DNA of 64,000 nt from a virus. Position numbers and translations under genes: made by a program. A model generated the notes under the pieces. That model was given only the letters and a program-made list of their open reading frames with translations. It was not told the origin of the DNA and made no database searches. The stretch covers positions 101,610-165,609 of the IMG/VR virus record IMGVR_UViG_3300025168_000034; one strand, 5' to 3'. This document shows, piece after piece, positions 2,220 through 57,387 of this stretch (within the stretch, counting starts at the first letter, position 1; every line of letters starts with the position of its first letter).

Positions 2220-4061
2220 CTACTCATCTAACAGGTTTTCTTCGTTGAGAAGACCAGGTTTTTTCTTATCTTTACTGTATGTGCTTTGTAATGCAGCAGC
2301 TTTGTTAAGATTGTCTTTTAATCCTTTGTAATTGCCAAGGTTTTGTGCTTCATACATTACACGACCTGCAGATTTGTTTTGTTTGTGACCTGCTGGATCC
2401 CACCCTAATGGATGTGTGTGTTTGCCAAATGTGCCAGGTTCTTTAGGTCTTCCTGCTCCAGGCCATCCACCCTCAGGTACTTCTTTTTCATCATATCCTT
2501 TTGGCACTCCCTCATCTCCTTTATACAAGCTGGCTATGTCGTGTGGTGTACCAAATGACTGACCACTCTCTTTTGGATCATTACCTTCAGTCTTGATCTG
2601 TTCTAATCGGAAGAATTCTTTTGAATCAGCTGCAATACGATCTTGCTCTTCCATCCACTGTTCTGGTTGCATGTTGAATAAGTGTTCGTAACACCAAAAT
2701 CTACTGAATAGTTTCTTTTCAACTAGATCTCCTGCTAACGTAGATTTAGATGTCCACAACTCTAACTTTTCTCTTTCGTAATACGTAGACGGTGGTGTTA
2801 GTTTTAATGAAAAATCGACAATCTCTTCATCAGTAAATCCTTGAGAATATAAGTGTACAATTGCAATCTTAGTAAGCTCGCTTACAATAATTTTTTGTAC
2901 TCTTTCAATTGTTCTTGCAAATCTGAAATCTTGTGATGCTAATGAGGCTTTTCCAGTAGTATCTTCTAAATATCCTAAATATGCTTTTGGAATTTTTAAC
3001 GCACCTAACATTCTATTCTGCAAATACTCAATGTCAGGAATTGAATCCATTTGTAGTCCAGGAGTGGTTTCAATCATTGTTCCGCTTTCTGCACCACGAA
3101 CTGGTAAGTAGAAGTCTTCAAGAATATTTTGCATGTTGTACTTGAGGTTGTAATCTCCCGTACTCTCATCTATAAATGGAACCTTTTTCATTTTGTTAAT
3201 CATACCTTCCATAAAAGCGTCAACTTCGTTTGGTGGTATGTTACCAATATCTATTTTAAAAATTCGTTTGTCTGGAGCTCTCATGATACGATGAATTAAC
3301 ATTGCATCTTCCATTAGTGTGAGTTGTTTCCATACCTTTCTTGCTGGCTCTAATAAAGATCTACCGTATGGTAAAAAGTTAGTATCATTTAATAATCTAA
3401 AGTGAGCAATCTCATAATTATCATATTCTTCGGTTGAGTTACGATGTATTGTAGTTGTAGCAATCCCTGACATCATGTCTCTTTTAAAAGTGACTTTGTT
3501 TGGATTTTGTGGATCCATACCCTCTTCTCGTACCATCTCATAAGCTGAGATTGGTTCCACGTTTGTGATTCCATACTTCTCGGTGATGTTTAGGTGTAGG
3601 TAAAAATCACCATATTTCAACGTACTACGTACCCATGGCCATAAATTAAATTCAACATTAAGAATGTCGTAAAATAGATTGTGAAGTACTTTGTGAATCT
3701 TATCATTGTTTGTCATGATAGTAAGTGTATCTTCAAATTCATCTTTAGCGGTACACTCGTCTGAATAAATATCTAATGCTGAAGATATGATACTATCAGA
3801 GTCCATTGCTTCATAATCTTTGAATAACTCAATTCTAGTAGCTTGTAATATTTCACCTTGATTGTATGCGGTAGTAATACCAGTTCCATACATTCGATTG
3901 AATCGATCAATACGACTATTATTCTGTAAGTTTCCTACAGATTGAAGATTGTCGGTGTCAACCACTTTAAGTTGTTTTCCACCAACATTACGAATAATTA
4001 CATCAGTACTAAATAATTTTCGTAGTCTGCCAAATAAGTTAGGTTTTTTCTCTTCTGCCAT
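2220..4061 (-). CDS. gp20: Portal protein (T4 gp20-like)
   Basis: ALDIYSDE, YGRSLLEPAR, LMEDAMLIHRIMRAPDKRIFKIDIGNIP, EDFYLPVRG, ALKIPK and DFRFARTIERVQ are gp20-family motifs. Confidence 0.96.
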   Translation of the reverse strand: MAEEKKPNLFGRLRKLFSTDVIIRNVGGKQLKVVDTDNLQSVGNLQNNSRIDRFNRMYGTGITTAYNQGEILQATRIELFKDYEAMDSDSIISSALDIYSDECTAKDEFEDTLTIMTNNDKIHKVLHNLFYDILNVEFNLWPWVRSTLKYGDFYLHLNITEKYGITNVEPISAYEMVREEGMDPQNPNKVTFKRDMMSGIATTTIHRNSTEEYDNYEIAHFRLLNDTNFLPYGRSLLEPARKVWKQLTLMEDAMLIHRIMRAPDKRIFKIDIGNIPPNEVDAFMEGMINKMKKVPFIDESTGDYNLKYNMQNILEDFYLPVRGAESGTMIETTPGLQMDSIPDIEYLQNRMLGALKIPKAYLGYLEDTTGKASLASQDFRFARTIERVQKIIVSELTKIAIVHLYSQGFTDEEIVDFSLKLTPPSTYYEREKLELWTSKSTLAGDLVEKKLFSRFWCYEHLFNMQPEQWMEEQDRIAADSKEFFRLEQIKTEGNDPKESGQSFGTPHDIASLYKGDEGVPKGYDEKEVPEGGWPGAGRPKEPGTFGKHTHPLGWDPAGHKQNKSAGRVMYEAQNLGNYKGLKDNLNKAAALQSTYSKDKKKPGLLNEENLLDE

Positions 4062-4075
4062 TCTTGTTTATTTTA

Positions 4076-4083
4076 TATAAATA
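4076..4083 (-). promoter_or_regulatory. Late promoter motif TATTTATA (representative of 14 copies)
   Basis: TATTTAT(A/T) 3-25 nt upstream of starts; copies begin at 2194, 4076, 5655, 9094, 12667, 16797, 25303, 27239, 31943, 41753, 49942, 54581, 57400, 63205. Confidence 0.8.
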
Positions 4084-4085
4084 GG

Positions 4086-5648
4086 CTACAATAACCAATT
4101 TAAGTCTTCGTCTTTGCCTTTTACATCCATTTTCCATGAATCAGTTTTGTGAGATGTTCTATACACTGCGGTTGATTTTGCATGATCTAAAGCTCTCTTT
4201 GTTAGCTCGATTCCTGCTTGACGTAGCTTTAATGCTGTGTCTCTTACCCACAATGCCATACACCAACTCATTACCAAATCATCATTGTATCCTAATTGTG
4301 CTTCAGGTCTTGCGTTTCTCCATATGAAAACGCCAAGTTCATCAAGAAGCCTTCTACTCCTTATTATACAACTTTTTTCCCTCATATACAACTCCATCTT
4401 GGAAATAATTAATGGTCGTACTTTTGAAGACATTGTAAAGCCAGCTACCTGATCTTTGGTACGTTGTACATCTGTTGCTCGAGCTAGATATCTATCTGAA
4501 TCTAATCCTATATCTTTTGGTGTGTAATATAGGTTTTTATATGAACGATCAATTACTTGTTGTATAGTTGCCCATCCTATATTTGCATTTTCAATAACAA
4601 GCAGTGCATCATTATACTCTGTAGCAATAGACACCAGCATGTTGCCATAATCCTTTGTTGTTACTTGCCCTTTATATTCAGCTACTTGTGTTGCCTCTTC
4701 TAAATCAAACACGTGGAATGCTGAGTAATCTGTTCCATCTCCACGAGCAACATCAGCTACTACCACATAATCCTTTGTATAATTTGGGATCTCCCACACA
4801 TGTAAATTACTATCAAATCCTCGTTTTTCAATTGGATCTTGCATGTAGGTTTGTCTGTAGAAGTTTAACATGTCTGGATGTACAACAGTATTACCTGATG
4901 TACTGAAATCGCAATCACACTCTTGTGCAGCTAGCCTAGCTCCTAACTCATCATCTTGCCTATCTCTCCACTCCTGATCTCTTTCTGGATGTACTTGCCA
5001 TGGAAGTCTTTTGGTAAAAAATTGATTCTCTCCTTCTTCTGATTTCATCCATATCTTATGAAAGAAGTTACCGGTACCGTTTGGTGTACTTAATATAACG
5101 CCTCTACCTCCAGTTGCTAAGGTTTGTTGTAGGGATGCCCACAACTCTTCTGCATTATCAACGAATGCTGCCTCATCAATTATTACTAATGATAATGCTT
5201 CTGAACGTCCTGATGTTCCTGAGCTGGCAACAGCTTTGATTTGTGATCCGTTTGTTAATCGTAGTGACAGTTTATTTTTTTCTGTTGTCTTTAATCGCAG
5301 CCAACTTGGTAAGTTTTCAAACATTACACTAACCTTTGTTACAAGGTTTTTAGATGTGTTTTGGTCAATTGCAACAACAAGAATGTTTTTATCGCTATGA
5401 AATAACATTGTCCACAAAGAGTATCCTGCAGATAATGTTGATATTCCTAGCTGACGTGACTTGAGTATGATAACCCTGTCATTGTCTTGCATGTCATTGG
5501 TAAGCTCTTCTTGGTAGGGATACAACTTAAATGGTATCTTTCCTTTTGATGGATGCTGGATTAGACAGTATTTTTTCATAAAGTATACTGGATCCTTAGC
5601 ACATTTTACGTACTCAGTCCTTATTAGCTTTTTTAAATCTACACTCAT
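4086..5648 (-). CDS. terL: Terminase large subunit (T4 gp17-like)
   Basis: LYPYQ, Walker A KSRQLGIST, Walker B IIDEAAF, STPNG, nuclease ADVARG-DYSA and NDDLVM. Confidence 0.97.
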   Translation of the reverse strand: MSVDLKKLIRTEYVKCAKDPVYFMKKYCLIQHPSKGKIPFKLYPYQEELTNDMQDNDRVIILKSRQLGISTLSAGYSLWTMLFHSDKNILVVAIDQNTSKNLVTKVSVMFENLPSWLRLKTTEKNKLSLRLTNGSQIKAVASSGTSGRSEALSLVIIDEAAFVDNAEELWASLQQTLATGGRGVILSTPNGTGNFFHKIWMKSEEGENQFFTKRLPWQVHPERDQEWRDRQDDELGARLAAQECDCDFSTSGNTVVHPDMLNFYRQTYMQDPIEKRGFDSNLHVWEIPNYTKDYVVVADVARGDGTDYSAFHVFDLEEATQVAEYKGQVTTKDYGNMLVSIATEYNDALLVIENANIGWATIQQVIDRSYKNLYYTPKDIGLDSDRYLARATDVQRTKDQVAGFTMSSKVRPLIISKMELYMREKSCIIRSRRLLDELGVFIWRNARPEAQLGYNDDLVMSWCMALWVRDTALKLRQAGIELTKRALDHAKSTAVYRTSHKTDSWKMDVKGKDEDLNWLL

Positions 5649-6071
5649 CTATTTTATAAATAGTACTAGAATAGTTGTTAAAATTGCTGCTCCACAACCT
5701 GCTCCTAACCAACGCTGATTGCGTTTAAGTTTTTCATTTTGTCTTTGCAAATCTTCTAGTCCAGTAACATATATGTTGATTTGTTGAGATTGAGCATTAA
5801 CCTGCTTTCTGCATAATATTGATTTTTCTGTGCTATGTTGTATTAGACTATCCTGCTTTGCTATTTTTTCATTAGCTAGCTCTAAAAGCAAGTAAGTGTA
5901 GTCAAACATTTCAACACACTGATCATACTTAATTAGATCTTCTGCTATTTGTTGTGCTGTACTGTATGGTAAAACTACGACAGAATCTTCGTTATTTTGG
6001 GTATCGGTCTGCGAAAAACTGGTCAAGGTCAGTGACAGTAAAACGCTCAATATCATTAAGCTCTTCTTCAT
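5649..6071 (-). CDS. Secreted coiled-coil protein with C-terminal TM helix; putative spanin-like partner
   Basis: Likely start MKKSLMILSVLLSLTLTSFS|Q (signal peptide, Gln+1), coiled coil, C-terminal hydrophobic WLGAGCGAAILTTILVLFIK; overlaps the next ORF. Confidence 0.55.
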   Translation of the reverse strand: MKKSLMILSVLLSLTLTSFSQTDTQNNEDSVVVLPYSTAQQIAEDLIKYDQCVEMFDYTYLLLELANEKIAKQDSLIQHSTEKSILCRKQVNAQSQQINIYVTGLEDLQRQNEKLKRNQRWLGAGCGAAILTTILVLFIK

Positions 6072-6348
6072 GTTGTTTTTGTATTTGTATGATTTGAGTT
6101 TCAGTAGCATTTATCTCCACGTCAAGTAAAGATATGTCTTGCTGGAAGCTTGTTATTAGGCTATCTTTTTCAAATTGTTGATATTCTAAAACAGAAATTG
6201 CATTTGAAAGACTGTCTACAAGTTGCTGATTTTCTTTTGTTAATCCGGTGTTGCTTGTAGGTTGCGGTTTGACAAAATACCATACGGCAAATACCACAAC
6301 GACTGTGTATAGTGCCAGGAAGATAAGGTGGAATCTATTTAGAGTCAT
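5992..6348 (-). CDS. N-terminal TM plus coiled-coil protein; putative i-spanin-like
   Basis: TM segment LIFLALYTVVVVFAVWYFV followed by a heptad-rich region; overlap with the downstream gene resembles Rz/Rz1. Confidence 0.55.
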   Translation of the reverse strand: MTLNRFHLIFLALYTVVVVFAVWYFVKPQPTSNTGLTKENQQLVDSLSNAISVLEYQQFEKDSLITSFQQDISLLDVEINATETQIIQIQKQHEEELNDIERFTVTDLDQFFADRYPK

Positions 6349-6362
6349 AACTTGTTTTATTT

Positions 6363-7391
6363 CTACTCGCCTTTGGCTTTGTAGTTTTTGTCAACGTAGT
6401 TGAAGAATTCTTTCTTCTTCTTATCACTCAAACCTTTTGGTGATTTTACGCCAAACTTGTCCATTGCCGATTTGAAAAACTTTTGGTATTCGGTATCTTC
6501 TTTTAATCGGTTTACGATTGATTCTGTTTTTGTGTTCATGTCGTTTTCTTTAAGATTTTTCAAAAGTCTGTCGTCTAAAAAGTCAATTTTATCCGCCATC
6601 TGTCCTACTAATCCATATACTTTACTCCAGATTTCTTCTGGTACTTTTGGTGGTTTGTTTGCTCCTAAAATTCTATCAAGCTCATTAACATGTTTATATA
6701 CTTGATCGTAAAATGTTTTGTATTTTGGATCTATTGCTTCGTTCATAGTGCCTCCTAGATGATTCATTATTTCTTTTTTAAATTCTTCTAATTCTTGATC
6801 GTTAAGATTTCTATATACTTTTTCTCGTAAATTTTTAATGAGTTTAGATGCTTCGGTTAAACCTTTACCCTCGTTGAGAGACTCACTAATTCTCTTTCCC
6901 AACATTCCTAATCTGTCTAAGTCTTTTAAATCTTTTATATACTCATCCGTTGCTGCAAGAATCACTCCCATCTTATCCTTTTGATTTTCGCCACTATAAA
7001 AGTTAAGCTCAGTCACTCTTGGATTGAATTTTTCTCCTCCTGGCTTATCCTTGAAGTTAGAGTTGTAATATTGAGTTTGATGTACTGCGAATGTTTGTCC
7101 AGAAGTTTCCGTAAATGTGTGATATTGAACATGTACAAACATTGGAGCATATTGTCCCATTCTTTTTTTGATAGGACTTGCATCAGAAGCTTTCAAATTC
7201 GCTTCAGCTTTTGACATGCTCTTTACAGCGTTTGGAAAATATTTTGTAATAAACTCCATATCTTCGCTGTCAGGCTTCTTCTGCATAGCATCTGCTATGA
7301 CCTTTGCTCCGGAGAAGTCATCGTCTGTATATTCTTTTAGAGGTGTCATTGCTTTGACTGTGCTTTCTATTAGTTTGTCCAGTTTTTTCAT
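6363..7391 (-). CDS. Modular putative capsid-internal protein
   Basis: 342 aa; short modules separated by LIE/LKE/ISE/LNE/LTE/MNE sites; C-terminal YQKFFKSAMDKFGVKSP...KKEFFNYVDKNY module. Confidence 0.55.
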   Translation of the reverse strand: MKKLDKLIESTVKAMTPLKEYTDDDFSGAKVIADAMQKKPDSEDMEFITKYFPNAVKSMSKAEANLKASDASPIKKRMGQYAPMFVHVQYHTFTETSGQTFAVHQTQYYNSNFKDKPGGEKFNPRVTELNFYSGENQKDKMGVILAATDEYIKDLKDLDRLGMLGKRISESLNEGKGLTEASKLIKNLREKVYRNLNDQELEEFKKEIMNHLGGTMNEAIDPKYKTFYDQVYKHVNELDRILGANKPPKVPEEIWSKVYGLVGQMADKIDFLDDRLLKNLKENDMNTKTESIVNRLKEDTEYQKFFKSAMDKFGVKSPKGLSDKKKKEFFNYVDKNYKAKGE

Positions 7392-7792
7392 CGTAAGCTG
7401 TCTTCTTTTATTCTTTGTAGGATTGTTAGCTTGTCCTGGTTTCCGTAACCAAAACTCTCTAACATGTCAACCACTATTGCAATTATGTCAGTTTGATCCA
7501 CTTCAGCAGTGGCGTCTTTGAGTTTCTTAATATAAAGATCAGTAAGATTTTGTAGTTCCTCATCAAGACCTGGCTCTTCCTCTTCTTCCGGCTCTTCGGT
7601 CGGTTCCTCAGTCGGTTCCTCAGTCGGTTCTTCAGGTTTAGCATCCGGCTCATCAGAAACGTCAGCTGCTGCTTCTTCCTCTTCCTCTTCGGGTGGTGCA
7701 CCGCCTGCTCCTTCCATAAGAGCTTTGTGCAATTCTCGTTTTACGAGCTCTCTAATTAAGGCTTGTTGTAGTTGTTTTTTTGTACGCTTCAT
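7388..7792 (-). CDS. Acidic protein with EEPT repeats (putative head core/internal protein)
   Basis: Leader LIRELVKRELHKALME, then an E/P-rich linker. Confidence 0.55.
   Translation of the reverse strand: MKRTKKQLQQALIRELVKRELHKALMEGAGGAPPEEEEEEAAADVSDEPDAKPEEPTEEPTEEPTEEPEEEEEPGLDEELQNLTDLYIKKLKDATAEVDQTDIIAIVVDMLESFGYGNQDKLTILQRIKEDSLR
7590..7636. repeat. 12-bp tandem repeat encoding (EEPT)n
   Basis: Two exact ggttcctcagtc units plus degenerate flanking units. Confidence 0.7.
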
Positions 7793-8196
7793 TTAATTAC
7801 GTTTTTAAATTTAACATCATCTCCTGAGAAGTTCTTTTTGTCTTCTGAGTCGAACATTATGCCTTCAAGAGTGGCGTGTCCATCTTTTTCTTTTCGCTTA
7901 ATCTTACAGATTGTTGCATCTAGCTTTTCTAATCCATTAAGAACATACACTAATCCAAACATGCACTGCTTCTTAGAACATTTAGCAACAATATATGCTT
8001 TAGATACTACCAAGCTCATATCTCCAAAATTGGTAAGATCGGCTGTGTATATTTTTACATCATCCTTTACACCAACATAATCAAATAGTACGTCGTATCC
8101 GTCACTAAGTTCGCCAAACTTACGAACATAATCTAACCACTCTGTTCCGTCGTTTTCATTAATTTGTTGTAAGGGCATTAAATCTCTAAGCTTCAT
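7789..8196 (-). CDS. Hypothetical protein with MKLxxL...INE leader (putative internal head protein)
   Basis: 135-aa ORF starting MKLRDLMPLQQINE. Confidence 0.55.
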   Translation of the reverse strand: MKLRDLMPLQQINENDGTEWLDYVRKFGELSDGYDVLFDYVGVKDDVKIYTADLTNFGDMSLVVSKAYIVAKCSKKQCMFGLVYVLNGLEKLDATICKIKRKEKDGHATLEGIMFDSEDKKNFSGDDVKFKNVIK

Positions 8197-8199
8197 ATT

Positions 8200-9090
8200 T
8201 TATTTTTTAATTCCAGCTCTATGTTGGAATGTTTCTTTTAAGTGTGATTCTACATCTTTACTGTAGGGTGGAAGAACATCTGCTGTTCCTTTTTCTAAAT
8301 ATTTTACAACCGCATTCACCTTTTCTGCATCAATAACCGGCATATCCTTTCTTTCTGGAGCACCTTGCATTTTTTGTTTTACAAGTTTTCCGGCATTGTC
8401 TGCCATAATAGCCATTCCTTTTTCCGAATCTCCATCAGCTCCTGGAACCTTTCCTAATGCTACTTTTACTTCTTCCGATGACAGATGAGGCCATTGTTTT
8501 AAACCTTGTTCTGTACCATCTTTCAAAGCATACTTAATTGCATTTTGTACTTTATCTCCAGTAAAGTTTGCTACGTCACCTTTTCCTTTGTTTCCTACAT
8601 CAATACCCAACTTACCCTTCGTCATTGCGTTGAGTGCTGTTATAAGTTGTTGGCCTGGTAAGTCTAACTTTGTTATAGCTACTTTAGCTCCTGGATAAAG
8701 AAGAGTTGCTGCTGCCCATCTATGGTGTCCATCCATAATAAAATCGTCATTAGAAACTATAGCTTCCATATTTGCTAAGTCAGGAGCGCCGTTTTTTGCC
8801 TTTGCTTCTTTAAAGTCATTAAACGCATATCCTAAAGCAAATGCTACTGCTTTTGAAACAATTACTTCCTTTTGTGCAGGCTTGAGCTGGCTTACTGGGA
8901 CTGCATCTGGACCACCATTAATAATATCATCCTCTTTGTCGCCATCCTCTAATCCACCTCCAACTGCATCTCCTGCTAGATCTTTATCCATCTTACTTAG
9001 CCCAACTGCTTTTGGATTGTTGAATACATCCGCTTCAGATAAAATATCTTTACGCATGTTATTGATAGTATTGCCTAACGACTTCTTCAT
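8200..9090 (-). CDS. ParB/Srx-like domain protein, putative internal head protein
   Basis: VPVSQLKPAQ...IVSNDDFIMDGHHRWAA ParB-N motif. Start placed at 9090, just downstream of the late motif; leader ends ILSE. Confidence 0.7.
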   Translation of the reverse strand: MKKSLGNTINNMRKDILSEADVFNNPKAVGLSKMDKDLAGDAVGGGLEDGDKEDDIINGGPDAVPVSQLKPAQKEVIVSKAVAFALGYAFNDFKEAKAKNGAPDLANMEAIVSNDDFIMDGHHRWAAATLLYPGAKVAITKLDLPGQQLITALNAMTKGKLGIDVGNKGKGDVANFTGDKVQNAIKYALKDGTEQGLKQWPHLSSEEVKVALGKVPGADGDSEKGMAIMADNAGKLVKQKMQGAPERKDMPVIDAEKVNAVVKYLEKGTADVLPPYSKDVESHLKETFQHRAGIKK

Positions 9091-9101
9091 ACTTATAAAT
9101 A

Positions 9102-9575
9102 TTACCATTTTCTGCAAGACCAATATCTTGCTTTAGTTTTTGGTCCTGGATTATCACAATTATGTCTTGCTCTGAACGATTTACGTCTTGCGGGATTACT
9201 CTTTTTTATCTTCATTCCTTTTTGACCAAAATTTACTTTTTTTGCTTTTATAGTACCGTCTGCATTCTTTTTTCCAGAATTTACATGTACTTTAAATTTC
9301 TTAACATCGCCACGCATTATTTTGTTAAGCTTAACAGTACGTCCATTATACTTAGCTTCTTGAAATAATACTGGTTCTGAGTGTTCTATTATTTCAAGTC
9401 TCAAACCTTCATTTCGGTAAACAACGGATTCTTTGGCATTAATCTTCTTGCCAGCTTTGACTGCAGCCTTATACGCTTTAGAGCCTTTAGGAGATGATTT
9501 TCCTCCTCTAGCTTTTTTAGCTCTAATGTTAGCCCACAATCCTTTATTCTCCTTTAGGTTGTTCTTTTTGTTCAT
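9102..9575 (-). CDS. Basic hypothetical protein (DUF6321-like C-terminus)
   Basis: KKVNFGQKGM...NPARRKSFRARHNC...ARYWSCRKW module recalled from large phages; modules split by LKE/AKE/FQE. Confidence 0.6.
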   Translation of the reverse strand: MNKKNNLKENKGLWANIRAKKARGGKSSPKGSKAYKAAVKAGKKINAKESVVYRNEGLRLEIIEHSEPVLFQEAKYNGRTVKLNKIMRGDVKKFKVHVNSGKKNADGTIKAKKVNFGQKGMKIKKSNPARRKSFRARHNCDNPGPKTKARYWSCRKW

Positions 9576-10077
9576 TAATTTTATCCTTTAACTCACCGAC
9601 AACACCTTCTAACTTTTCGATTTCTTTATCTATCATGTCGCTAATTAGTGCGTTGTCTGGGTTAGCCCATTTTTCAATTTTTCCTTTTTCTGAAACATGT
9701 GTGTTCTCAGCTGAGCTTTCTTTAAACTCTTGCAAGCCGGCTTTAACATCTCTCAAATACGATTTAGCATTTTCATACTTTTTCATCGCATTAAATTCTT
9801 TTTTTAACCCTTTTGCTCTCAACTTATGTTGTTCATCAACAACACAATTAAAACACTTTCGATCAGTTTTCCAAAATTTGGCATCTAATCGATTGTTCAT
9901 CTTCTTACCACAACATGGACATGCTAACGGGACTAAAAAGTCTTTTCTAGCTTTATCCATTCTTGTAACTGTTTTTTTTATGCCGTTTTTGATTGTCCAC
10001 GTTTTACCGCTTTCCTCCCAAACATCACCCTCATGACGCTCGACATATTTGTTTCTCGTAACCTTAATTTTTTTCAT
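9544..10077 (-). CDS. Zn-finger-containing hypothetical protein
   Basis: CPCC...CFNC plus an EGDVWEESGKTW motif. Confidence 0.6.
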   Translation of the reverse strand: MKKIKVTRNKYVERHEGDVWEESGKTWTIKNGIKKTVTRMDKARKDFLVPLACPCCGKKMNNRLDAKFWKTDRKCFNCVVDEQHKLRAKGLKKEFNAMKKYENAKSYLRDVKAGLQEFKESSAENTHVSEKGKIEKWANPDNALISDMIDKEIEKLEGVVGELKDKINEQKEQPKGE

Positions 10078-10376
10078 TATCGTGCTTTTACATTAAATTT
10101 TTCTAACACCGCCTCTACTCTCTTGTCAAACTTTCTCAAAGCTCTACGTAGTTCTAATTTCATAGCTTCTGCAAGTTTCTTTTCTTCGTCCTTATTAGCT
10201 ACTGTTCTGTAAAACTCTTTACCACCGACTGACGACATTGTTACGTCAAATGAGAATTCTGGTTTTCCATCCTCTCCTACTTCAGTGAACTGTGGGTCGT
10301 AGTGTAACGTCATATTTGTGTTTGGTGACGTTGCGATTGCTTCTTTCTTTTCGCTTAAAAGTTTTTTTAATTCCAT
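10077..10376 (-). CDS. Hypothetical protein with MELKKLLSE leader
   Basis: 99-aa ORF, translationally coupled to both neighbours. Confidence 0.55.
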   Translation of the reverse strand: MELKKLLSEKKEAIATSPNTNMTLHYDPQFTEVGEDGKPEFSFDVTMSSVGGKEFYRTVANKDEEKKLAEAMKLELRRALRKFDKRVEAVLEKFNVKAR

Positions 10377-12649
10377 TATCTTCCGAATTTTATGTATCCT
10401 ATAATTTGATTGACTGGTGCAAAGGCTCCAGTTAATTTGTATAATTTTCCTTTGTGTTTAAACACTATACCTTCTGATGGTACTATTGCATCGAATCCTC
10501 CAATCTTATCCAAGCGTTTAAGTTGTGCTTTGAGAAATCTCAAAGGTGCATCATCGTCTTGAAGTTTATCATTGTTTGCTTTTGCCTTTAATTGTTCGAT
10601 AGAGCTTGCCAACTCTCTTTTCATTTTTGAAATAGAATCGTTAGGGTTGATTGCTACTAATCCTTCTAAACTTTTCAATACAAAAACTCCTAATTTTAGA
10701 AAGATGTCTTCTACCGGTTCGACAGCTATCTTTTTTTGATCTCTAACACCACTTCCCTTATCCATAGTAGTAAACCACTCTAAGAATTCTGGATTGTCTA
10801 TTGATTTTTTTAACTCTCGTAGATTTGGTTGTTTTTGACCAAAAGCCCATCTGTTAATGATATTCTGCAATACGTCGTCAGGCACTGCGTATTTGTAGGT
10901 TTTAGCATTATTTTTTATAAAAGCAGACCAAAAATTTTGAAAGTATAATCCTAACTTACTTTCCTTAGTTAGCTGGTACTTGCCTCTAACATTACCAAGA
11001 TCTTTAAGTAGTTCTTGCTTTTGTTTTTCGTAATCTTTAGTTTGTTTAAGATCCACTAAGTCAGTGGCTCTTATTTCATACGTATCTTGTTTAGAAGCTT
11101 CTACTCGATCTAAGGCTTGTTGTATTTTAGTAGGTGCTTCACTATCACTTCCTATGACGTTTCCATTCTCATCATACTCCTGCACGTTGTGCATTCTTAG
11201 TTGAGTTACTCCGTAAGCAGCTACATTTTCACTGGAAGGATGTAAGAGTTCCATGTTTATAAACTTGGTACCGTTTCCAAAAAACTCTTCTTTTTCGGTT
11301 GGATTAAGTTTGGATATCGCATCCGTCATATCTTGCATTGCATCAAGAAATGCATTACGAACATTATCTGGTAAGTGCTGCATTGACTTTTCCATATCAT
11401 TCTTAGTCATTGCTTTTTCAGCTGCATTCTTCAGTTGTCCTTTGTTTCTTGCTGAAAGCACTTTGCCGTCTTTATATGTTACCATAAGATTCTGTCCATC
11501 TAACTTCTCTTGAGCATACTCCACTTTTCCGGTTAAAGCTGCATCAATCATATCTTCGATATCATCAAAAGTCATATCCATATCTTCATACGGATGAGCC
11601 ATGTGTCCAGCTGCTCCTCCCTCTTTTAAAAGATTGCGACCCTCACTGACAGCCATAAATTCTGCTGGAGTCTCTATATCTAGAAATGCTGAGGGTGTTA
11701 GTGTTTTTTTTAGTATTGGCAGACGAGCTAAGAGTAGGTAGATTACTCCTCCAGGTAACACAGATGCTGCTGTAAATCCAGCTAATTTCAAAACATCTTT
11801 CATTTGATCGCCAATCTCTTTTCTTTCGTGATTTGGTAACTTTTGACCTTTCTTTACCGCGGAATACAGCTTTATAAATGCGTCTTTAGTTTCTTGCTTT
11901 TCAACCTTTAGTTTGTCAATAAAAGCTCCAAACTTACTTTTTAATTGTTCAAATTGTTTACGTAAGACAGCAGGAATTTCTATCTCATCCAAAGTAGATT
12001 GGGAGAGGTCCTCCTTGATCTTTTTTTTTGATAATAGATCGAATATGTCTCTAAGCTGTTGATCAGATTTTATGCTTGGATAATTTGTTTTAAAATTTTC
12101 AAAATCCTGAGCTGCTAAGTCAGATCGTAGCTGCGACGCTGAGGTTGGCTTACCGTTTTGATCATCAGTTCTATTTTTGTAGAATAATGGTTTTGATTTA
12201 TCAAGTGGCAACTCAACAACACTCACACCATCTTTATAATATTTTCCATCATTTTGGTGTTGATCTACAAAGCCACGAATACGATCGTAATCACTACCTT
12301 TGCTGCTTGACCCTAAAGCATACGATTCTCCTGATTGAGCTTTCTCTTCAATATATTTGTATGCAGTGAGTAGTGGACTTGGGTATCTTGATCTCTCTAC
12401 TCTAATCTTTTTGGTTCCAGCTAGTAGTTTTTCCCATATTTTTTCGCTATCTTCAAGAGTAATACCATCACGTTCTTTTGGTCCTATTAGAATAACAACT
12501 TCTTTTACTTGTGGCATATCTTCATAACCCTTTGCAAGCATTAAGTGTCCTTCGTGTGGAGGTTTAAATCCACCAGGCAACATTACTGTAATTCCCTCTT
12601 CAACTTCGTTGAGAATACTATCAACTAGAAATTTTGATAAATCGTTCAT
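10376..12649 (-). CDS. Multidomain protein: HIGH-family nucleotidyltransferase + LETM1-like region + RNA-ligase-like (DUF6267-like) domain
   Basis: PGGFKPPHEGH and TSASQLR (HIGH/SxTxxR); QMKDVLK...VLPGG...LTPSAF (LETM1-like); GHMAHP, EKLDG, PSEGIVF, YKLTG (ligase motifs I, IV, V). Confidence 0.75.
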   Translation of the reverse strand: MNDLSKFLVDSILNEVEEGITVMLPGGFKPPHEGHLMLAKGYEDMPQVKEVVILIGPKERDGITLEDSEKIWEKLLAGTKKIRVERSRYPSPLLTAYKYIEEKAQSGESYALGSSSKGSDYDRIRGFVDQHQNDGKYYKDGVSVVELPLDKSKPLFYKNRTDDQNGKPTSASQLRSDLAAQDFENFKTNYPSIKSDQQLRDIFDLLSKKKIKEDLSQSTLDEIEIPAVLRKQFEQLKSKFGAFIDKLKVEKQETKDAFIKLYSAVKKGQKLPNHERKEIGDQMKDVLKLAGFTAASVLPGGVIYLLLARLPILKKTLTPSAFLDIETPAEFMAVSEGRNLLKEGGAAGHMAHPYEDMDMTFDDIEDMIDAALTGKVEYAQEKLDGQNLMVTYKDGKVLSARNKGQLKNAAEKAMTKNDMEKSMQHLPDNVRNAFLDAMQDMTDAISKLNPTEKEEFFGNGTKFINMELLHPSSENVAAYGVTQLRMHNVQEYDENGNVIGSDSEAPTKIQQALDRVEASKQDTYEIRATDLVDLKQTKDYEKQKQELLKDLGNVRGKYQLTKESKLGLYFQNFWSAFIKNNAKTYKYAVPDDVLQNIINRWAFGQKQPNLRELKKSIDNPEFLEWFTTMDKGSGVRDQKKIAVEPVEDIFLKLGVFVLKSLEGLVAINPNDSISKMKRELASSIEQLKAKANNDKLQDDDAPLRFLKAQLKRLDKIGGFDAIVPSEGIVFKHKGKLYKLTGAFAPVNQIIGYIKFGR

Positions 12650-13189
12650 TTATAAAGAGTCTTTTGTATAAATAGGCTGCGTTTTCACTTTAGCCTTTAA
12701 TTGTGCAACTTCTTTTGTGAGCTGATCAACTCTATCTAGCAGTTTTGTAATCACACTAGATAATGACTTGTGTTTTAAATTTTCATTCTTATATAAGTAA
12801 AGGTCTTCTAGGACTGCACTTCCGTTTACAATTAACTTACACTGATCATACTCACCCTCTATTGTAGATTGTCCGACATAGAATTTTTCCATAACTCGTC
12901 TGGATATTATATCTCTGTTTTCAAGATCTTGTGTGATTGGATTGTAAGCGAGGTAGTGTGAAATAAAGTATATGTTGTCGGATTGAAGTTTAGCATCTGT
13001 GTTAGGTGTGCCTATTCTTACTAGATAGGGATTAGTGTTATGCTTTGCTTTTATGTCAGACACACTCTCTCCATTCCAACTTGTATAAATATTCTTTAAG
13101 CGAATCTTACCCAAAGTTTCTCCAGTTGCTAATCCTTCAATTGGTTTGAAAGGTGTTGTTGTGTTTCTTACTTTATTATTATTTATCAT
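12650..13189 (-). CDS. Hypothetical virion-associated protein with C-terminal coiled coil
   Basis: 179-aa ORF ending in the heptad KLLDRVDQLTKEVAQLKAKV. Confidence 0.55.
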   Translation of the reverse strand: MINNNKVRNTTTPFKPIEGLATGETLGKIRLKNIYTSWNGESVSDIKAKHNTNPYLVRIGTPNTDAKLQSDNIYFISHYLAYNPITQDLENRDIISRRVMEKFYVGQSTIEGEYDQCKLIVNGSAVLEDLYLYKNENLKHKSLSSVITKLLDRVDQLTKEVAQLKAKVKTQPIYTKDSL

Positions 13190-40856: not shown

Positions 40857-41300
40857 TTAGTAGTTTGTTGGTGTTTCACTATCATTATCAAACGTAACAT
40901 CTATCTGTCTTGTATCGAATTCGTTTCCAATTAAATTTATACTTAATGAAATGCCTAATAAGTTTGGATTAGTTTCTGATCTTAATACTTCTAGTTTTTG
41001 AATATTAATATACGGCAATTGCACCTTAAAACTCTCACGAATTAATTCATCTATTTCTTCTACAAATTCATCTGTATTATTGTTAAATAAAACTCCTCGC
41101 AAATTACAACCAAAAGTTGGACGCATAGGTCTTTCGCCATGGTTGGTGAGTAGTAGATTTTTAGCATTAGCCACCGCTTGATCTAGTGATGTGTAATTTA
41201 GAGCAAAACCAGACCCGCGGGATGAATTCATAGGTAAATCAAAACCTATTGCTACATCTCGTTCAAAATCTAATGCTGGTTGGTTTATCTCTATTGCCAT
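40857..41300 (-). CDS. gp25: Baseplate wedge protein (gp25-like)
   Basis: KNLLLTNHGERPMRPTFGCNL. Confidence 0.9.
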   Translation of the reverse strand: MAIEINQPALDFERDVAIGFDLPMNSSRGSGFALNYTSLDQAVANAKNLLLTNHGERPMRPTFGCNLRGVLFNNNTDEFVEEIDELIRESFKVQLPYINIQKLEVLRSETNPNLLGISLSINLIGNEFDTRQIDVTFDNDSETPTNY

Positions 41301-41734
41301 TATCTATTATACTTTTTATCGTGTATTGCTTCTGCTGACTTCATAATTGATGAGTAGTCTTTAACAAAAGCGTCTGTTCCAGATGGAGGCATAGCTGTCT
41401 GTTGGCTAGCCATGTGTCCAAATCCTTGCGCTTGATCAGCTGTAAATTGTGGTGCCATTTCTGGATATGCTCCATCATCACCAAGTGGAGCTGCTTGACC
41501 ATTTCTCATGGCATTTGCAGTTTCCATTAATATTCCATCCAAACTAGCATTTCCAGTCTTGTGAATTGGTTGCTGAGTTACTGGAGCGTGTGTGGTGCTA
41601 TGTATATCATTAGCGCGCTCTTTGATTGGTTGTTTGTTTGTTTTTAGTGCTTCTCGTAACTCTTGTCGTATAACCGTTCGCACTTCCTTTCTGATAATCT
41701 CCTTTAGGAGTTTTGCAAAATCTATTGCTTTCAT
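41300..41734 (-). CDS. Hypothetical late protein
   Basis: LLKEIIRKEVRTVIRQELRE leader; late motif at 41753-41760. Confidence 0.6.
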   Translation of the reverse strand: MKAIDFAKLLKEIIRKEVRTVIRQELREALKTNKQPIKERANDIHSTTHAPVTQQPIHKTGNASLDGILMETANAMRNGQAAPLGDDGAYPEMAPQFTADQAQGFGHMASQQTAMPPSGTDAFVKDYSSIMKSAEAIHDKKYNR

Positions 41735-55114: not shown

Positions 55115-55145
55115 AATATACGAAAATTATATTATACTTTCAACT
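55115..55145 (-). promoter_or_regulatory. Putative early/middle promoter AGTTG-N20-TATATT upstream of hpt
   Basis: Bipartite motif with a 20-nt spacer shared by three loci. Confidence 0.6.
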
Positions 55146-55518
55146 TTTTACCCGATGTTTTAAAATTAAGTTTACGCATAACTGTTTTAGATATTAAGTC
55201 CAGTTTTTTGGTTCTAGGATTGAATCTAAGAACAAACGGTACGTTAATATTAGATTCCATATCAGTGATTACAGCCTCTCCACTAGCTCCTAAACTCTTT
55301 ATCTCCTGTCCGTGATCCTCATATGTCTTTGTAAACAGATCCTCAATCTCTTCTGGCTCTATTGATTTACGATTACGTATATCGTTTACTCGATCCATAA
55401 AATGTCTTGTGAATTCTATATCAATTCCAATAGCAGCAAACATCTTATCTAAGTAAGCTTCCACTTCATCTAATTCAGCTTGGTTTACTGATTCTAATAT
55501 TTGTTGTAGCTTAATCAT
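55132..55518 (-). CDS. Putative internal head protein, possible BECR-fold RNase
   Basis: Leader MIKLQQILE; EFTRHFMDRVND...LISKTVMRK pattern. Confidence 0.5.
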   Translation of the reverse strand: MIKLQQILESVNQAELDEVEAYLDKMFAAIGIDIEFTRHFMDRVNDIRNRKSIEPEEIEDLFTKTYEDHGQEIKSLGASGEAVITDMESNINVPFVLRFNPRTKKLDLISKTVMRKLNFKTSGKKLKV

Positions 55519-55519
55519 G

Positions 55520-56518
55520 TTATCCTGGTACATCTTCTTCAAACACTATTCCCTCTCCGGTGAGTGTACCATTAACACTACCTACCTGATCAGTTACTGT
55601 TGTTCCAGTACCTCCATCATTATCACCCATTCTATAATAATGTTGGATAGCTATAAATTGGTTACTATAATCAATGCTAGTAGCATCTGTAGGAACACCA
55701 CTATTATATAAGTTACTTACATCAGATTGAGCCAAAGATCCAGTAAAGTATACAAATTCATCTATATTGCCGTTCATAAAATCACTTGCACCATTACGTG
55801 AACCAATGTGGAATGGTGTTGTGTCATTGGTAGAAGATCCTGGAGTCATGTTGCTGGTATCAAATGATTCCGCGTGTGTCCCATTTGATGATTGTGATAC
55901 ACGACTAATACCATTTACATATATATCCATTCCAGAACTACTAAAATTTCCATTATATGTTACTACCAGATGATACCAACCAAGTGATGCGTTTGGAATA
56001 ATATTACCTCCTCCAGCATTGTCTGATCCACTGTGTACAGCAGATCTTACAGTTAATCCCTTAGGATTGTTGGTGACGGGCTCCCGTCCTTGAATTAAAA
56101 CTTTTACTCCACTAAAACTATCTACAGTTAAACTTAATCCTTTATATTCTACACCTCGACCTGAAGCTACTTTACTAGCAATTCTAACTCCGCTTTCTCC
56201 TGGATTTGAATCATGTTTTACCCATGTACTTATACTAAAAGAACTGGAAGGTGAGATTACCATATTATCACCAAACCCTATAGTACTATCCGCTACATCT
56301 CCATCAAATTTAGCAGAGTAGGTGTTTGTAAAACCACTGGCTGCAGCTGTTCCAGTATTACTACCGTAAGCCTGTAGATGTTGTTGATATCGCAAAAAAG
56401 CCTCTTTCCTTCTTCTTTGATCTTGTTTCTTTTTAGCTTTAAACGCTCCTTCCTCCTGCAACTTTTGTTTTTTTGCTAACTCACGAATATAATCTGCATT
56501 CCTTAGAAAATCTTTCAT
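55520..56518 (-). CDS. LamG/concanavalin-like domain virion protein
   Basis: SFSISTWVK, WYHLVVTY, IYVNG, HIG, MNGNIDEF, YYRMGD. Confidence 0.8.
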   Translation of the reverse strand: MKDFLRNADYIRELAKKQKLQEEGAFKAKKKQDQRRRKEAFLRYQQHLQAYGSNTGTAAASGFTNTYSAKFDGDVADSTIGFGDNMVISPSSSFSISTWVKHDSNPGESGVRIASKVASGRGVEYKGLSLTVDSFSGVKVLIQGREPVTNNPKGLTVRSAVHSGSDNAGGGNIIPNASLGWYHLVVTYNGNFSSSGMDIYVNGISRVSQSSNGTHAESFDTSNMTPGSSTNDTTPFHIGSRNGASDFMNGNIDEFVYFTGSLAQSDVSNLYNSGVPTDATSIDYSNQFIAIQHYYRMGDNDGGTGTTVTDQVGSVNGTLTGEGIVFEEDVPG

Positions 56519-57387
56519 TTATCTGTAGTAGTTTCTATTGTAACTTGTATTTTTGGTTCATATCCTTGTGGTAATTTATTTACCAATCCTTTAAAAGTGG
56601 AGTTGCCAGCATCATGTCTAAACTCAAATTTAAGATTACTAAGATCCATCATCACTTGTGAAGATGTTGTAAATCCAAAACTATTATCTCGTCTATACGG
56701 ATTCATCCACTTATCACTATCATGTTGCTTCGATAGAGCATCCAATACCTGCTCTTGCGATGAAATATCCGACAATGCATCGTAAGCTATTTGTTGCCTA
56801 GACAAAGAAGATTTTCTTTTTAATCCACCCGTATAACCAGTATCAGGATACTCAACTCCATGGTTAGTTCTTGTCACTACTTCATCAGGACCTATTCGCT
56901 TTATTATAGGAACATGTTGTGAAGTCATTTCAATAATATAGCTATGCTTAGCGTTTGATACAATTGTAAGCCCCTTGACCCCAACATCATCTTCATCATC
57001 ACCTCTAAAATTAATCACCGATCTCATAGATTGTGATAATTTAGATTGTTGTAATGCGGTTCTGATTTTTAATCCATCATAAGAAGGCTTACCATTCTTA
57101 CCTTTTTTAGCTTTATCTTTTGCTAAATCTCCCTCTTTTTCATCAAAACCAACCATTAAAGATGCATTTACTACACCAATACCCTTCTCATTTAGACCTT
57201 CACTCCAATCGGTTAAGACGTCTCGCATATAAACCATCTCTATACCATTCACAATTTCGTGCACTACTTCAAGATCTGGAGCATACATTCTATCGCGGTT
57301 CTTTGCCAAAACTACATTGCCATCAACACGGCAGCGCGCAATCACACACTCGTTTAATTCGTGAAGAAGGTTACGTAATTTTATCAT
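56515..57387 (-). CDS. Ntn-hydrolase (C45/NRDE-like) with cleavable leader
   Basis: MIKLRNLLHELNE|CVIA...LAKNRDR, WSEGLNEKGIGVVN, RTNHG, SSLSR, TTSSQVM. Confidence 0.75.
   Translation of the reverse strand: MIKLRNLLHELNECVIARCRVDGNVVLAKNRDRMYAPDLEVVHEIVNGIEMVYMRDVLTDWSEGLNEKGIGVVNASLMVGFDEKEGDLAKDKAKKGKNGKPSYDGLKIRTALQQSKLSQSMRSVINFRGDDEDDVGVKGLTIVSNAKHSYIIEMTSQHVPIIKRIGPDEVVTRTNHGVEYPDTGYTGGLKRKSSLSRQQIAYDALSDISSQEQVLDALSKQHDSDKWMNPYRRDNSFGFTTSSQVMMDLSNLKFEFRHDAGNSTFKGLVNKLPQGYEPKIQVTIETTTDK

Follow-up and report, generated by a model that had tools for sequence, protein, structure and literature searches.

Why should so many unrelated genes of a single phage begin with nearly the same short peptide? 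This question is raised by a 64-kb stretch of DNA (here, the window) that forms the final part, bases 101610-165609, of the 165,609-bp IMG/VR virus record IMGVR_UViG_3300025168_000034 (completeness estimate, 98%). Positions are given from the first base of the window, or as genome positions for the whole record; gene orientation is minus strand throughout, and all features described here lie on that strand. The initial annotation of the interval from 6363 to 12649 had reported short leaders ending in Glu on unrelated late open reading frames (ORFs) and had proposed that they form a T4-style packaging tag. Every leader that it quoted could be read in the sequence: MKKLDKLIE at 7391-7365 (protein p342), MKLRDLMPLQQINE at 8196-8155 (p135), MKKSLGNTINNMRKDILSE at 9090-9034 (a protein with a DGHHRW motif), MELKKLLSE at 10376-10350 (p99), MNDLSKFLVDSILNE at 12649-12605 (residues 1 to 15 of p757) and, outside the interval, MIKLQQILE at 55518-55492 (a 128-aa protein) and MIKLRNLLHELNE at 57387-57349 (an Ntn-hydrolase-like protein). 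These leaders are 9 to 19 residues long. Our analysis suggests that they are probably capsid-targeting propeptides of the T4 type that are removed by the prohead protease; by analogy the tagged proteins may also be delivered to the host, which is less certain than the propeptide reading itself.

In T4, the prohead protease gp21 cleaves after L/I-X-E (PMC9026906). On sequence criteria, the source phage is a T4-like myovirus, uncultured and marine, with a host lineage of the Bacteroidota type. Its closest named relative is Flavobacterium phage vB_FspM_immuto (hereafter immuto; 56% identity in the large terminase, TerL), in whose record the gp20 portal, gp21 protease and gp23 capsid protein are annotated in the same order as in the source phage; a search of the region for near-identical DNA in cultured phages gave no match. 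The head module is anchored by the portal gene (2220-4061; PHROG portal, E value of 4.8e-62) and TerL (4086-5648; PHROG TerL, E value of 2.5e-48). The gp21-type protease gene starts at 591 and continues past the start of the window (positions 1 to 591; genome 101586-102200), and its product matches Pfam Peptidase_S77 (PF03420) with an E value of 7.6e-26 and 91 bits against a cut-off of 27. Its GELDHP and GISSRG motifs align with the His of GELxHP and the Ser of SSRG in T4 gp21 (His85 and Ser140 by count), which we take to be the catalytic residues. The QINE noted earlier near the protease N terminus was found as TQINE at residues 17 to 21, and this INE|S site (the bar marks a candidate cut) corresponds to LTE|S in immuto. 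The capsid protein matches Pfam Gp23 (E value of 3e-75, domain from residue 69), and its propeptide ends in LKE|GSAT (residues 53 to 55), in the same alignment column as the LTE|AEIGG cut of T4. These two features, the protease and the capsid-protein site, indicate that the T4 head-maturation machinery is present.

The leaders were enriched at N termini when a pattern fuller than (L/I)xE was used, namely, hydrophobic-x-x-hydrophobic-hydrophobic-x-E ending within the first 18 residues, with the expectation taken from its internal frequency. The pattern occurred in 18 of 195 genes of the source genome (4.0 expected), in 23 of 228 genes of immuto (4.8 expected) and in 82 of 634 nonredundant ORFs from 80 related IMG/VR loci (10.7 expected); a control window at residues 41 to 58 of the last set yielded 5 of 590. 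The immuto genes with leaders include those that begin at positions 24569, 102294, 103366, 112261, 113188 and 118632 of its genome. A position-specific scoring matrix built from seven leaders outside the window, with Met left unscored, and scanned over all six frames recovered N termini beyond its seeds, such as MIKLRNLLHE at window position 57387, and nearly all of its top in-frame matches on the coding strand fell at ORF starts, a few codons from a stop. The clearest leaders outside the window belong to a nine-gene run at genome 14438-8609, the members of which begin with MIKLKDIL[NLFYK]E or near variants, and further clear examples lie at genome 44113 and elsewhere. Past the leader, no similarity was detectable among the tagged proteins. 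Chance or composition as the explanation was rejected, given the restriction to N termini together with conservation in orthologues. The leader codons vary synonymously between genes (ATT, ATC and ATA; CTT, CTA and TTA; GAA and GAG) and the upstream DNA is unrelated, which argues that selection acts on the peptide; conservation at the DNA level was rejected on the synonymous variation.

Orthologues of the interval genes were obtained by searching IMG/VR with TerL plus 10-kb flanks, which recovered a homologous pre-terminase module in many relatives. Six of the nine interval proteins carry (L/I)-x-E at the N terminus, and their orthologues keep it with the middle residue variable. For p757 (10376-12649), 15 of 16 orthologues with a leader retain the site, x being N, K, G, A, T, L, P or S, and for p135 (7789-8196) L/I-x-E falls within residues 9 to 14 of every full-length orthologue (as INE, LQE, LKE or LRE). 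The LIE of p342 (6363-7391) is kept in all homologues with the N terminus present. In p99 (10077-10376), which starts MELKKLLSE|KKEAIATS, leader length varies among orthologues, with L-x-E always directly ahead of the conserved KKEAIATS block. The 296-aa DGHHRW protein (8200-9090) has a 19-residue leader, and 8 of 10 orthologues retain its L-x-E. In p134 (7388-7792) a basic N-terminal helix of 27 residues ends in LME|GAGG and gives way to an acidic region rich in Glu and Pro; 7 of 10 orthologues have L-x-E ahead of Gly or Ala. The remaining three proteins are leaderless: no conserved (L/I)xE was found among orthologues of p177 and p179, and none at the N terminus among those of p157.

The same sites recur inside longer proteins. 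The initial annotation had also described internal modules delimited by such tripeptides, and conserved sites were indeed found at fusion junctions and in the linkers of p757. Where genes have fused or split, L-x-E is preserved at the junctions. In three relatives (L033, L036 and L037) the p757 homologue carries the p99 module at its C-terminal end, joined through NLTE|EKEIVATA. In five others (L020, L024, L025, L028 and L030) the DGHHRW protein runs on into further modules, the last being a p134 homologue, with L-x-E at every junction; the protein itself has a C-terminal LKE|T site, whose L-x-E is kept in 11 of 11 orthologues, and the fused p134 junctions read LKE|A, LLE|N or LRE|A. In p342 the modular body leads to LKE|D (residue 298), behind which lies a conserved C-terminal module (phrog_28651, E value of 2.8e-8); the L[KR]E of residue 296 is kept in 15 of 15. 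Three of the seven (L/I)xE sites of p757 are conserved, the other four occurring in 2 to 3 orthologues of the 12 to 19 aligned at each. Apart from the leader, the conserved sites are LDE|I at residues 220 to 222 (11984-11992), kept in 6 of 7 close orthologues and a candidate cut after the nucleotidyltransferase (NTase) domain, and LKE|GGA at residues 341 to 343 (11621-11629), kept in 18 of 19 and a candidate cleavage point that would part the ligase-like domain from the helical middle part. In the AlphaFold2 (AF2) model of p757 (mean predicted local distance difference test [pLDDT] of 77) the leader forms a separate helix at residues 2 to 15 with a pLDDT below that of the following domain, and the sole segments with a pLDDT of <50, residues 210 to 225 and 313 to 349, are those in which both conserved internal sites sit, LKE|GGA within residues 332 to 349.

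A further indication comes from the Ntn-hydrolase-like protein (56515-57387), in which the leader MIKLRNLLHELNE is followed directly by Cys. In a set of 120 homologues, the residue directly ahead of the conserved Cys (the presumed nucleophile) was Glu in 109 of 110, and (L/I)xE stood there in 94 of 110, with prepeptides ranging from 5 to ~100 residues. The Glu is fixed at P1, ahead of the presumed nucleophile, whatever lies upstream, as a gp21-type cut would require. The initial Ntn label, read here as AAT/C45-like Ntn hydrolase, is moderately supported, on the Cys context and on a Pfam AAT match that itself lies below the cut-off (E value of 4.6e-4); some homologues carry PF03417. The 128-aa protein with the leader MIKLQQILE (55132-55518), whose ATG lies 1 nt past the stop of the upstream gene, matches phrog_23027, a family of unknown function, and had no relative in the PDB.

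The leader is widespread beyond this genome. A scan of IMG/VR with an exact back-translated pattern for MIKLKDILxE found it in at least 119 stretches. Among the 88 matches listed, 86 start ORFs of at least 50 residues, 82 of them with no upstream in-frame ATG; the 86 listed cargo proteins fall into at least 53 similarity clusters, with N, L, K, T and S among the residues at x. Of 80 loci, 29 carried at least two leader genes. All nine tag-bearing large contigs tested (115 to 369 kb) encode Peptidase_S77 above the Pfam cut-off. The cargo includes a HAD phosphatase, beside the NTase, ligase-like and Ntn-like proteins and many unknowns.

Leader genes also appear to share an expression class. Searched for k-mers without bias, the upstream regions showed the motif CTATTTATA 11 to 28 nt ahead of the portal gene, TerL and many tail genes, and likewise ahead of p757, the DGHHRW protein and the nine-gene operon. 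The copy at 12667-12675, 25 nt upstream of p757, is a candidate late promoter; the form TATTTATA lies at 9094-9101, 11 nt upstream of the DGHHRW-protein ATG, a spacing that recurs ahead of the gene that opens the nine-gene leader operon (genome 14449). Sites at 5662-5669 and 4076-4083 precede structural genes, and 30 more sites of the two motifs are spread genome-wide. The second motif, CCGTATATT, lies 13 to 37 nt ahead of other genes, including a GroES-like gene and a 748-aa gene, which were taken as replication-type from their position. When each gene was assigned to the nearest upstream motif, 17 leader genes fell in the CTATTTATA class and 0 in the CCGTATATT class (Fisher p of 0.008). The initial annotation had named equal frequency of the motif in early or replication proteins as grounds for refutation. 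This check does not refute the proposal: no leader was found on the N termini of large genes in the presumed replication part of the genome. As a side observation, TATTTATA is the reverse complement of the T4 late promoter TATAAATA, yet it stands here on the coding strand.

Several points weigh against reading these peptides as capsid-targeting propeptides. Bare (L/I)xE carries little information: it was only weakly enriched at N termini of the source genome (49 genes against 32.6 expected) and was dropped as a classifier for that reason. The leaders of the interval are looser variants of the MIKLKDILxE consensus; their reality rests on conservation in orthologues and not on the motif alone. 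The pattern also occurs on proteins that would not be expected in heads, namely, at TerL N termini in relatives and on a baseplate-module protein (41300-41734). The "late" class is crude, as it takes in 146 of 195 genes and is defined by motifs alone, and the 9 of 9 co-occurrence with Peptidase_S77 is a count over tag-bearing large contigs only. Three p757 orthologues (L058, L061 and L066) are leaderless, starting with MIKHIIAIYPGRF at the first Rossmann strand with in-frame stops upstream, and the tag is therefore dispensable for the enzyme; E343 at the LKE|GGA site opens an invariant EGGAxGHMxHP motif that is present in these leaderless orthologues too, so conservation of that site may reflect enzyme function and not cleavage. 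No virion proteomics or N-terminal data for immuto or Mel-JY01 were found in the literature. The leaderless orthologues have a second implication: solved NMNAT/PPAT chains begin 3 to 10 residues ahead of the first Rossmann strand, and together these observations suggest that the p757 leader is an add-on. Overall, the proposal of a T4-style tag on unrelated late proteins is partly supported. It fits the Peptidase_S77 protease, the gp23 site, the L/I and Glu kept in orthologues, the junctions, the nine contigs and the lack of leaders on replication genes, and it does not extend to the three leaderless proteins of the interval.

The 144-aa baseplate-module protein at 41300-41734 begins MKAIDFAKLLKE (its immuto counterpart, MKLDLLKKLIKE), and a CTATTTATA motif lies immediately ahead of its gene. 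Either the leader pattern has picked it up falsely, or the tail genes include one that encodes a tagged protein.

By analogy with T4, we infer core binding, cleavage, virion retention, ejection into the host and a role there. Late in infection, tagged proteins would bind the assembling prohead core by an amphipathic helix, for which the consensus MIKLKDILxE offers hydrophobic residues at positions 4, 7 and 8. Once the shell was closed, the gp21-type Peptidase_S77 would cut behind the Glu of (L/I)-x-E; the leader would be lost, and the mature protein would be retained in the head with the DNA. The same site could be reused at module junctions, so that p757 and the fused forms in relatives would be cut into separate products, and the cut would give the Ntn-hydrolase-like zymogen its N-terminal Cys. 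A tag on about 20 unrelated late proteins implies that the phage probably packs ready-made enzymes in its head along with the DNA.

The explanation that competes best with this one, which we nevertheless consider unlikely, is that the leaders do mark core proteins or protease substrates but that these are scaffold accessories, fragmented and expelled, or in-head maturation enzymes, and not cargo for the next host. The same sites occur in T4 gp22, gp67 and gp68, whose fate is to be degraded and lost (PMC9026906), and several proteins here would suit such a fate: the mature part of p134 is acidic and scaffold-like (isoelectric point [pI] of 4.1), p342 is predicted to be largely unstructured (ESM Atlas pLDDT of 0.43), and core genes adjoining the protease bear similar leaders, such as MKTNILKQLSE and MKLVTNKNTLVDILGE. 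However, the NTase, the ligase-like domain, the Ntn-like hydrolase and the HAD phosphatase are folded enzymes and thus unlikely scaffolds, with single conserved sites at ends or linkers and not many throughout, and the variability of the cargo (53 clusters) fits accessory functions better than assembly roles. The pI of the predicted mature products was tried as a discriminator and set aside as uninformative, the values being mixed acidic and basic, unlike those of the basic internal proteins of T4.

Somewhat more doubtful again is that the N-terminal helix has nothing to do with the capsid, being an oligomerization or membrane helix or an AT-rich translation start in hosts that do without a Shine-Dalgarno sequence, with the Glu incidental. 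Codons for Lys, Ile and Leu are rich in A and T and frequent where genes start, the genome has a G+C content of 36%, and the similar helices on TerL of relatives and on the baseplate-module protein would be natural on this account. It leaves unexplained, however, the fixed Glu and L/I around a free middle residue, the L-x-E at fused internal junctions, the Glu ahead of Cys in 109 of 110 Ntn-like homologues and the co-occurrence with Peptidase_S77 in 9 of 9 contigs; moreover, Leu codons containing G or C (CTT and CTA) are freely used in the leader. Very improbable is the idea that the conserved 5' ends serve as joints at which cassettes are exchanged by recombination, with the DNA selected and the peptide inert: leader-gene arrays do swap cargo among relatives, and the first codons of the gene at 64381 recur in a 20-codon remnant at genome 65588, but the leader codons of neighboring genes differ synonymously, the flanking DNA is unconserved, conservation is at the amino acid level, and such joints would in any case be compatible with capsid targeting and not exclusive of it.

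The remnant, a 20-codon ORF at genome 65588-65529 (MEINDILLEWSYRIK...), duplicates the first 13 codons of a 454-aa gene at genome 64381 and adjoins, on the upstream side, two tandem genes with another type of leader, MKLxRKRLMExAGL (compare genome 66187). It has the look of a scar that duplication or recombination has left at a leader.

If the leaders are capsid-targeting propeptides, the nature of the cargo becomes of interest. The N-terminal domain of p757 (residues ~16 to 210) had been labeled an NTase, and its assignment as an NMNAT/PPAT-class nucleotidyltransferase with a Rossmann fold holds on profile and model evidence: a profile search of the PDB matched NMNAT 2qjt (E value of 6.4e-5), Foldseek returned NaMNAT/PPAT structures with a probability of 1.0 and a template modeling (TM) score of up to 0.66 on the target, and P30 and H35 of an H-x-G-H-type motif (PPHEGH) and S170 and R175 of a C-terminal S-x-x-x-x-R motif are invariant. 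The ligase-like label for residues 344 to 757 fared less well. Motif I, K-x-D-G, is invariant at K382, D384 and G385, as are E726, G727, V729 and K738 near the C-terminal end, and Foldseek matched T4 Rnl1 (9do4) with a probability of 0.96, but the TM score was 0.25 and family searches and PDB sequence and profile searches gave no sequence-level match; a domain resembling RNA ligase (Rnl1/Rnl3-like) is thus moderately supported. Between the two domains, residues ~273 to 316 (11700-11830) hold a hydrophobic stretch, LAGFTAASVLPGGVIYLLLARLPIL, with G291 and G300 invariant inside it, possibly a segment for binding to membrane or core.

The ParB-like label given to the DGHHRW protein is weak. The motif is invariant, and the sole PDB profile match, which is marginal, was to the free serine kinase SerK (5x0j, E value of 0.017), which we take to have a ParB/Srx fold; Pfam gave no match, and no ParB domain, for the protein and 10 orthologues, and the AF2 model (pLDDT of 54) was too poor for a fold search. 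Single-sequence PDB searches with p757 and with the DGHHRW, 128-aa and Ntn-like proteins returned no significant match, so the RNase-like label found no support. Searches of Pfam, PHROGs and NCBIfam with the nine interval proteins found almost nothing except PHROGs of unknown function, and nothing for p135; an ESM Atlas look-up of p342 returned only unnamed viral clusters with scores of <0.8.

Two of the leaderless proteins have relatives that bear on the subject. The very basic p157 (9102-9575; pI of 10.7) weakly matches DUF5754 and has an N-terminal NLKE in just 2 of 15 orthologues and an internal I-x-E at residue 62 in ~12 of 13; its C-terminal domain sits behind clear leaders in other phages (L056, L066 and L033), for example, MIRLKDLLKE and MKKSQLFNIIKE. 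It may be an analogue of the basic DNA-associated internal proteins of T4. The Cys4 zinc-ribbon-like p177 (9544-10077) lies just downstream of the p757 homologue in 14 of 14 listed loci with both genes, mostly directly adjacent, down to ~30% identity. In distant relatives p177 begins MKKSISE or MKKFIPE, possibly a 7-residue propeptide like that of T4 Alt. The loci behind these observations on p177 include L044, L052, L058, L066, L069, L074 and L089.

Other ORFs near the head genes deserve mention. Between the portal and protease genes (588-2175) lie two ORFs of 276 and 251 aa with 12 and 8 (L/I)xE sites, respectively, and no family match; such a density is what would be expected of scaffold or core proteins that the protease degrades. 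The 276-aa ORF reads IKNTGILFE at residues 9 to 17. Right upstream of TerL (5649-6348) are two small ORFs with N termini resembling signal peptides or membrane segments (MKKSLMILSVLLSLTLTSFSQ and MTLNRFHLIFLALYTVVVVFAVWYF), whose position is conserved across relatives. As called they overlap by 119 nt, and the 153-aa ORF therefore probably begins at an internal Met.

If the tag works as it does in T4, capsid-carried proteins that are otherwise invisible without virion proteomics could be read from the genome in widespread uncultured marine phages. Loading by capsid targeting would then be a general, modular system, with large enzymes, polyprotein splitting and zymogen activation, and not a curiosity of the T-even phages, and the cargo (NTase, RNA-ligase-like protein, Ntn-like amidase, HAD phosphatase and many unknowns) would amount to a list of candidates for first-strike counter-defense. 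Roles of the cargo in NAD salvage, RNA repair, counter-defense or host takeover are conjecture. We also advance, tentatively and as possible rather than probable, a clade-wide reading: in a large clade of uncultured marine T4-like phages, a single 10-residue tag, MIKLKDILxE with its variants, would load >50 fast-swapping families, the protease would act as a general maturase (tag removal, linker cuts and zymogen activation), and an injected NMNAT-class NTase and RNA-ligase-like enzyme would counter host defenses before phage gene expression. The heads of such phages would be effector-delivery devices with a readable signal, and the injected set could be predicted from metagenome sequence. The tag could also help to load proteins into Bacteroidota phages.

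How does this system compare with those already described? The closest parallel is T4 itself, whose tag is MKTYQEFIAE (PMC8442874) and whose capsid-targeting sequences span 10 to 19 residues, with a propeptide of 7 in Alt; in IPIII, residues 4 and 7 serve targeting and residues 8 and 10 serve processing (PMC9026906). MIKLKDILxE has the same length and register, with hydrophobic residues at 4, 7 and 8, an acidic residue at 6 and Glu at 10; the 10-residue register is matched by this consensus and by MIKLRNLLHE (57387), and the interval leaders, at 9 to 19 residues, fit it loosely. Both systems combine a Peptidase_S77 protease with a gp23 capsid protein whose propeptide sites are homologous, and in both, N-terminal propeptides (predicted ones here) of 7 to 19 residues ending in L/I-X-E stand on unrelated cargo that shares the tag alone. 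They differ in the sequence of the tag, in the number of tagged genes (about 20 here and four in T4), in the cargo (much of it 15- to 85-kDa enzymes here, small and basic in T4), in the host lineage, which is of the Bacteroidota type here, and in that candidate cuts occur here between the domains of a multidomain precursor in a system known from genes alone. No match of the cargo to the T4 internal protein families (IPI, IPII, IPIII and Alt) was found in Pfam, PHROG or NCBIfam, and the likeness to T4 appears to be one of mechanism and not of descent of the cargo. The polymorphic internal-protein locus of T-even phages (PMC9026906, PMC3012670) likewise consists of tandem, fast-swapping genes with only the tag in common, with small basic antirestriction cargo there and at least 53 unrelated families, including enzymes, here.

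The giant phages phiKZ, 201phi2-1 and SPN3US also have many head-internal proteins, some of them enzymes, whose propeptides a diverged gp21 homologue cleaves behind the Glu of a three-residue motif, and several sites per propeptide are possible (PMC5694885, PMC7411985, PMC10052503). Their genomes exceed 200 kb, and their cleavage has been shown by mass spectrometry, whereas the source phage is known from its genes. Their motif is presumably a different one, with a small P3 residue, on propeptides that we take to be long and dissimilar in place of one portable 10-residue tag. Phage P1 reportedly packs its Dar antirestriction proteins in the head and delivers them with the DNA against host defenses, a likeness in accessory capsid cargo; loading in P1 is said to follow a hierarchy among the Dar proteins and not a short protease-removed tag, and no homology to the Dar system was seen here. 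Capsid targeting is a topic of a P1 virion study (PMC9024508). Our literature search for capsid-targeting sequences turned up none beyond those of T-even phages, giant phages and P1. A general role for the tag in loading varied proteins in T4-like phages has already been proposed by reviewers (PMC9026906). The mechanism would be textbook T4, and the surprise is limited to that extent. By this analogy, what is new here is the tag sequence, the far more numerous and larger cargo and the apparent processing at junctions, while the logic is the same as that of T4.

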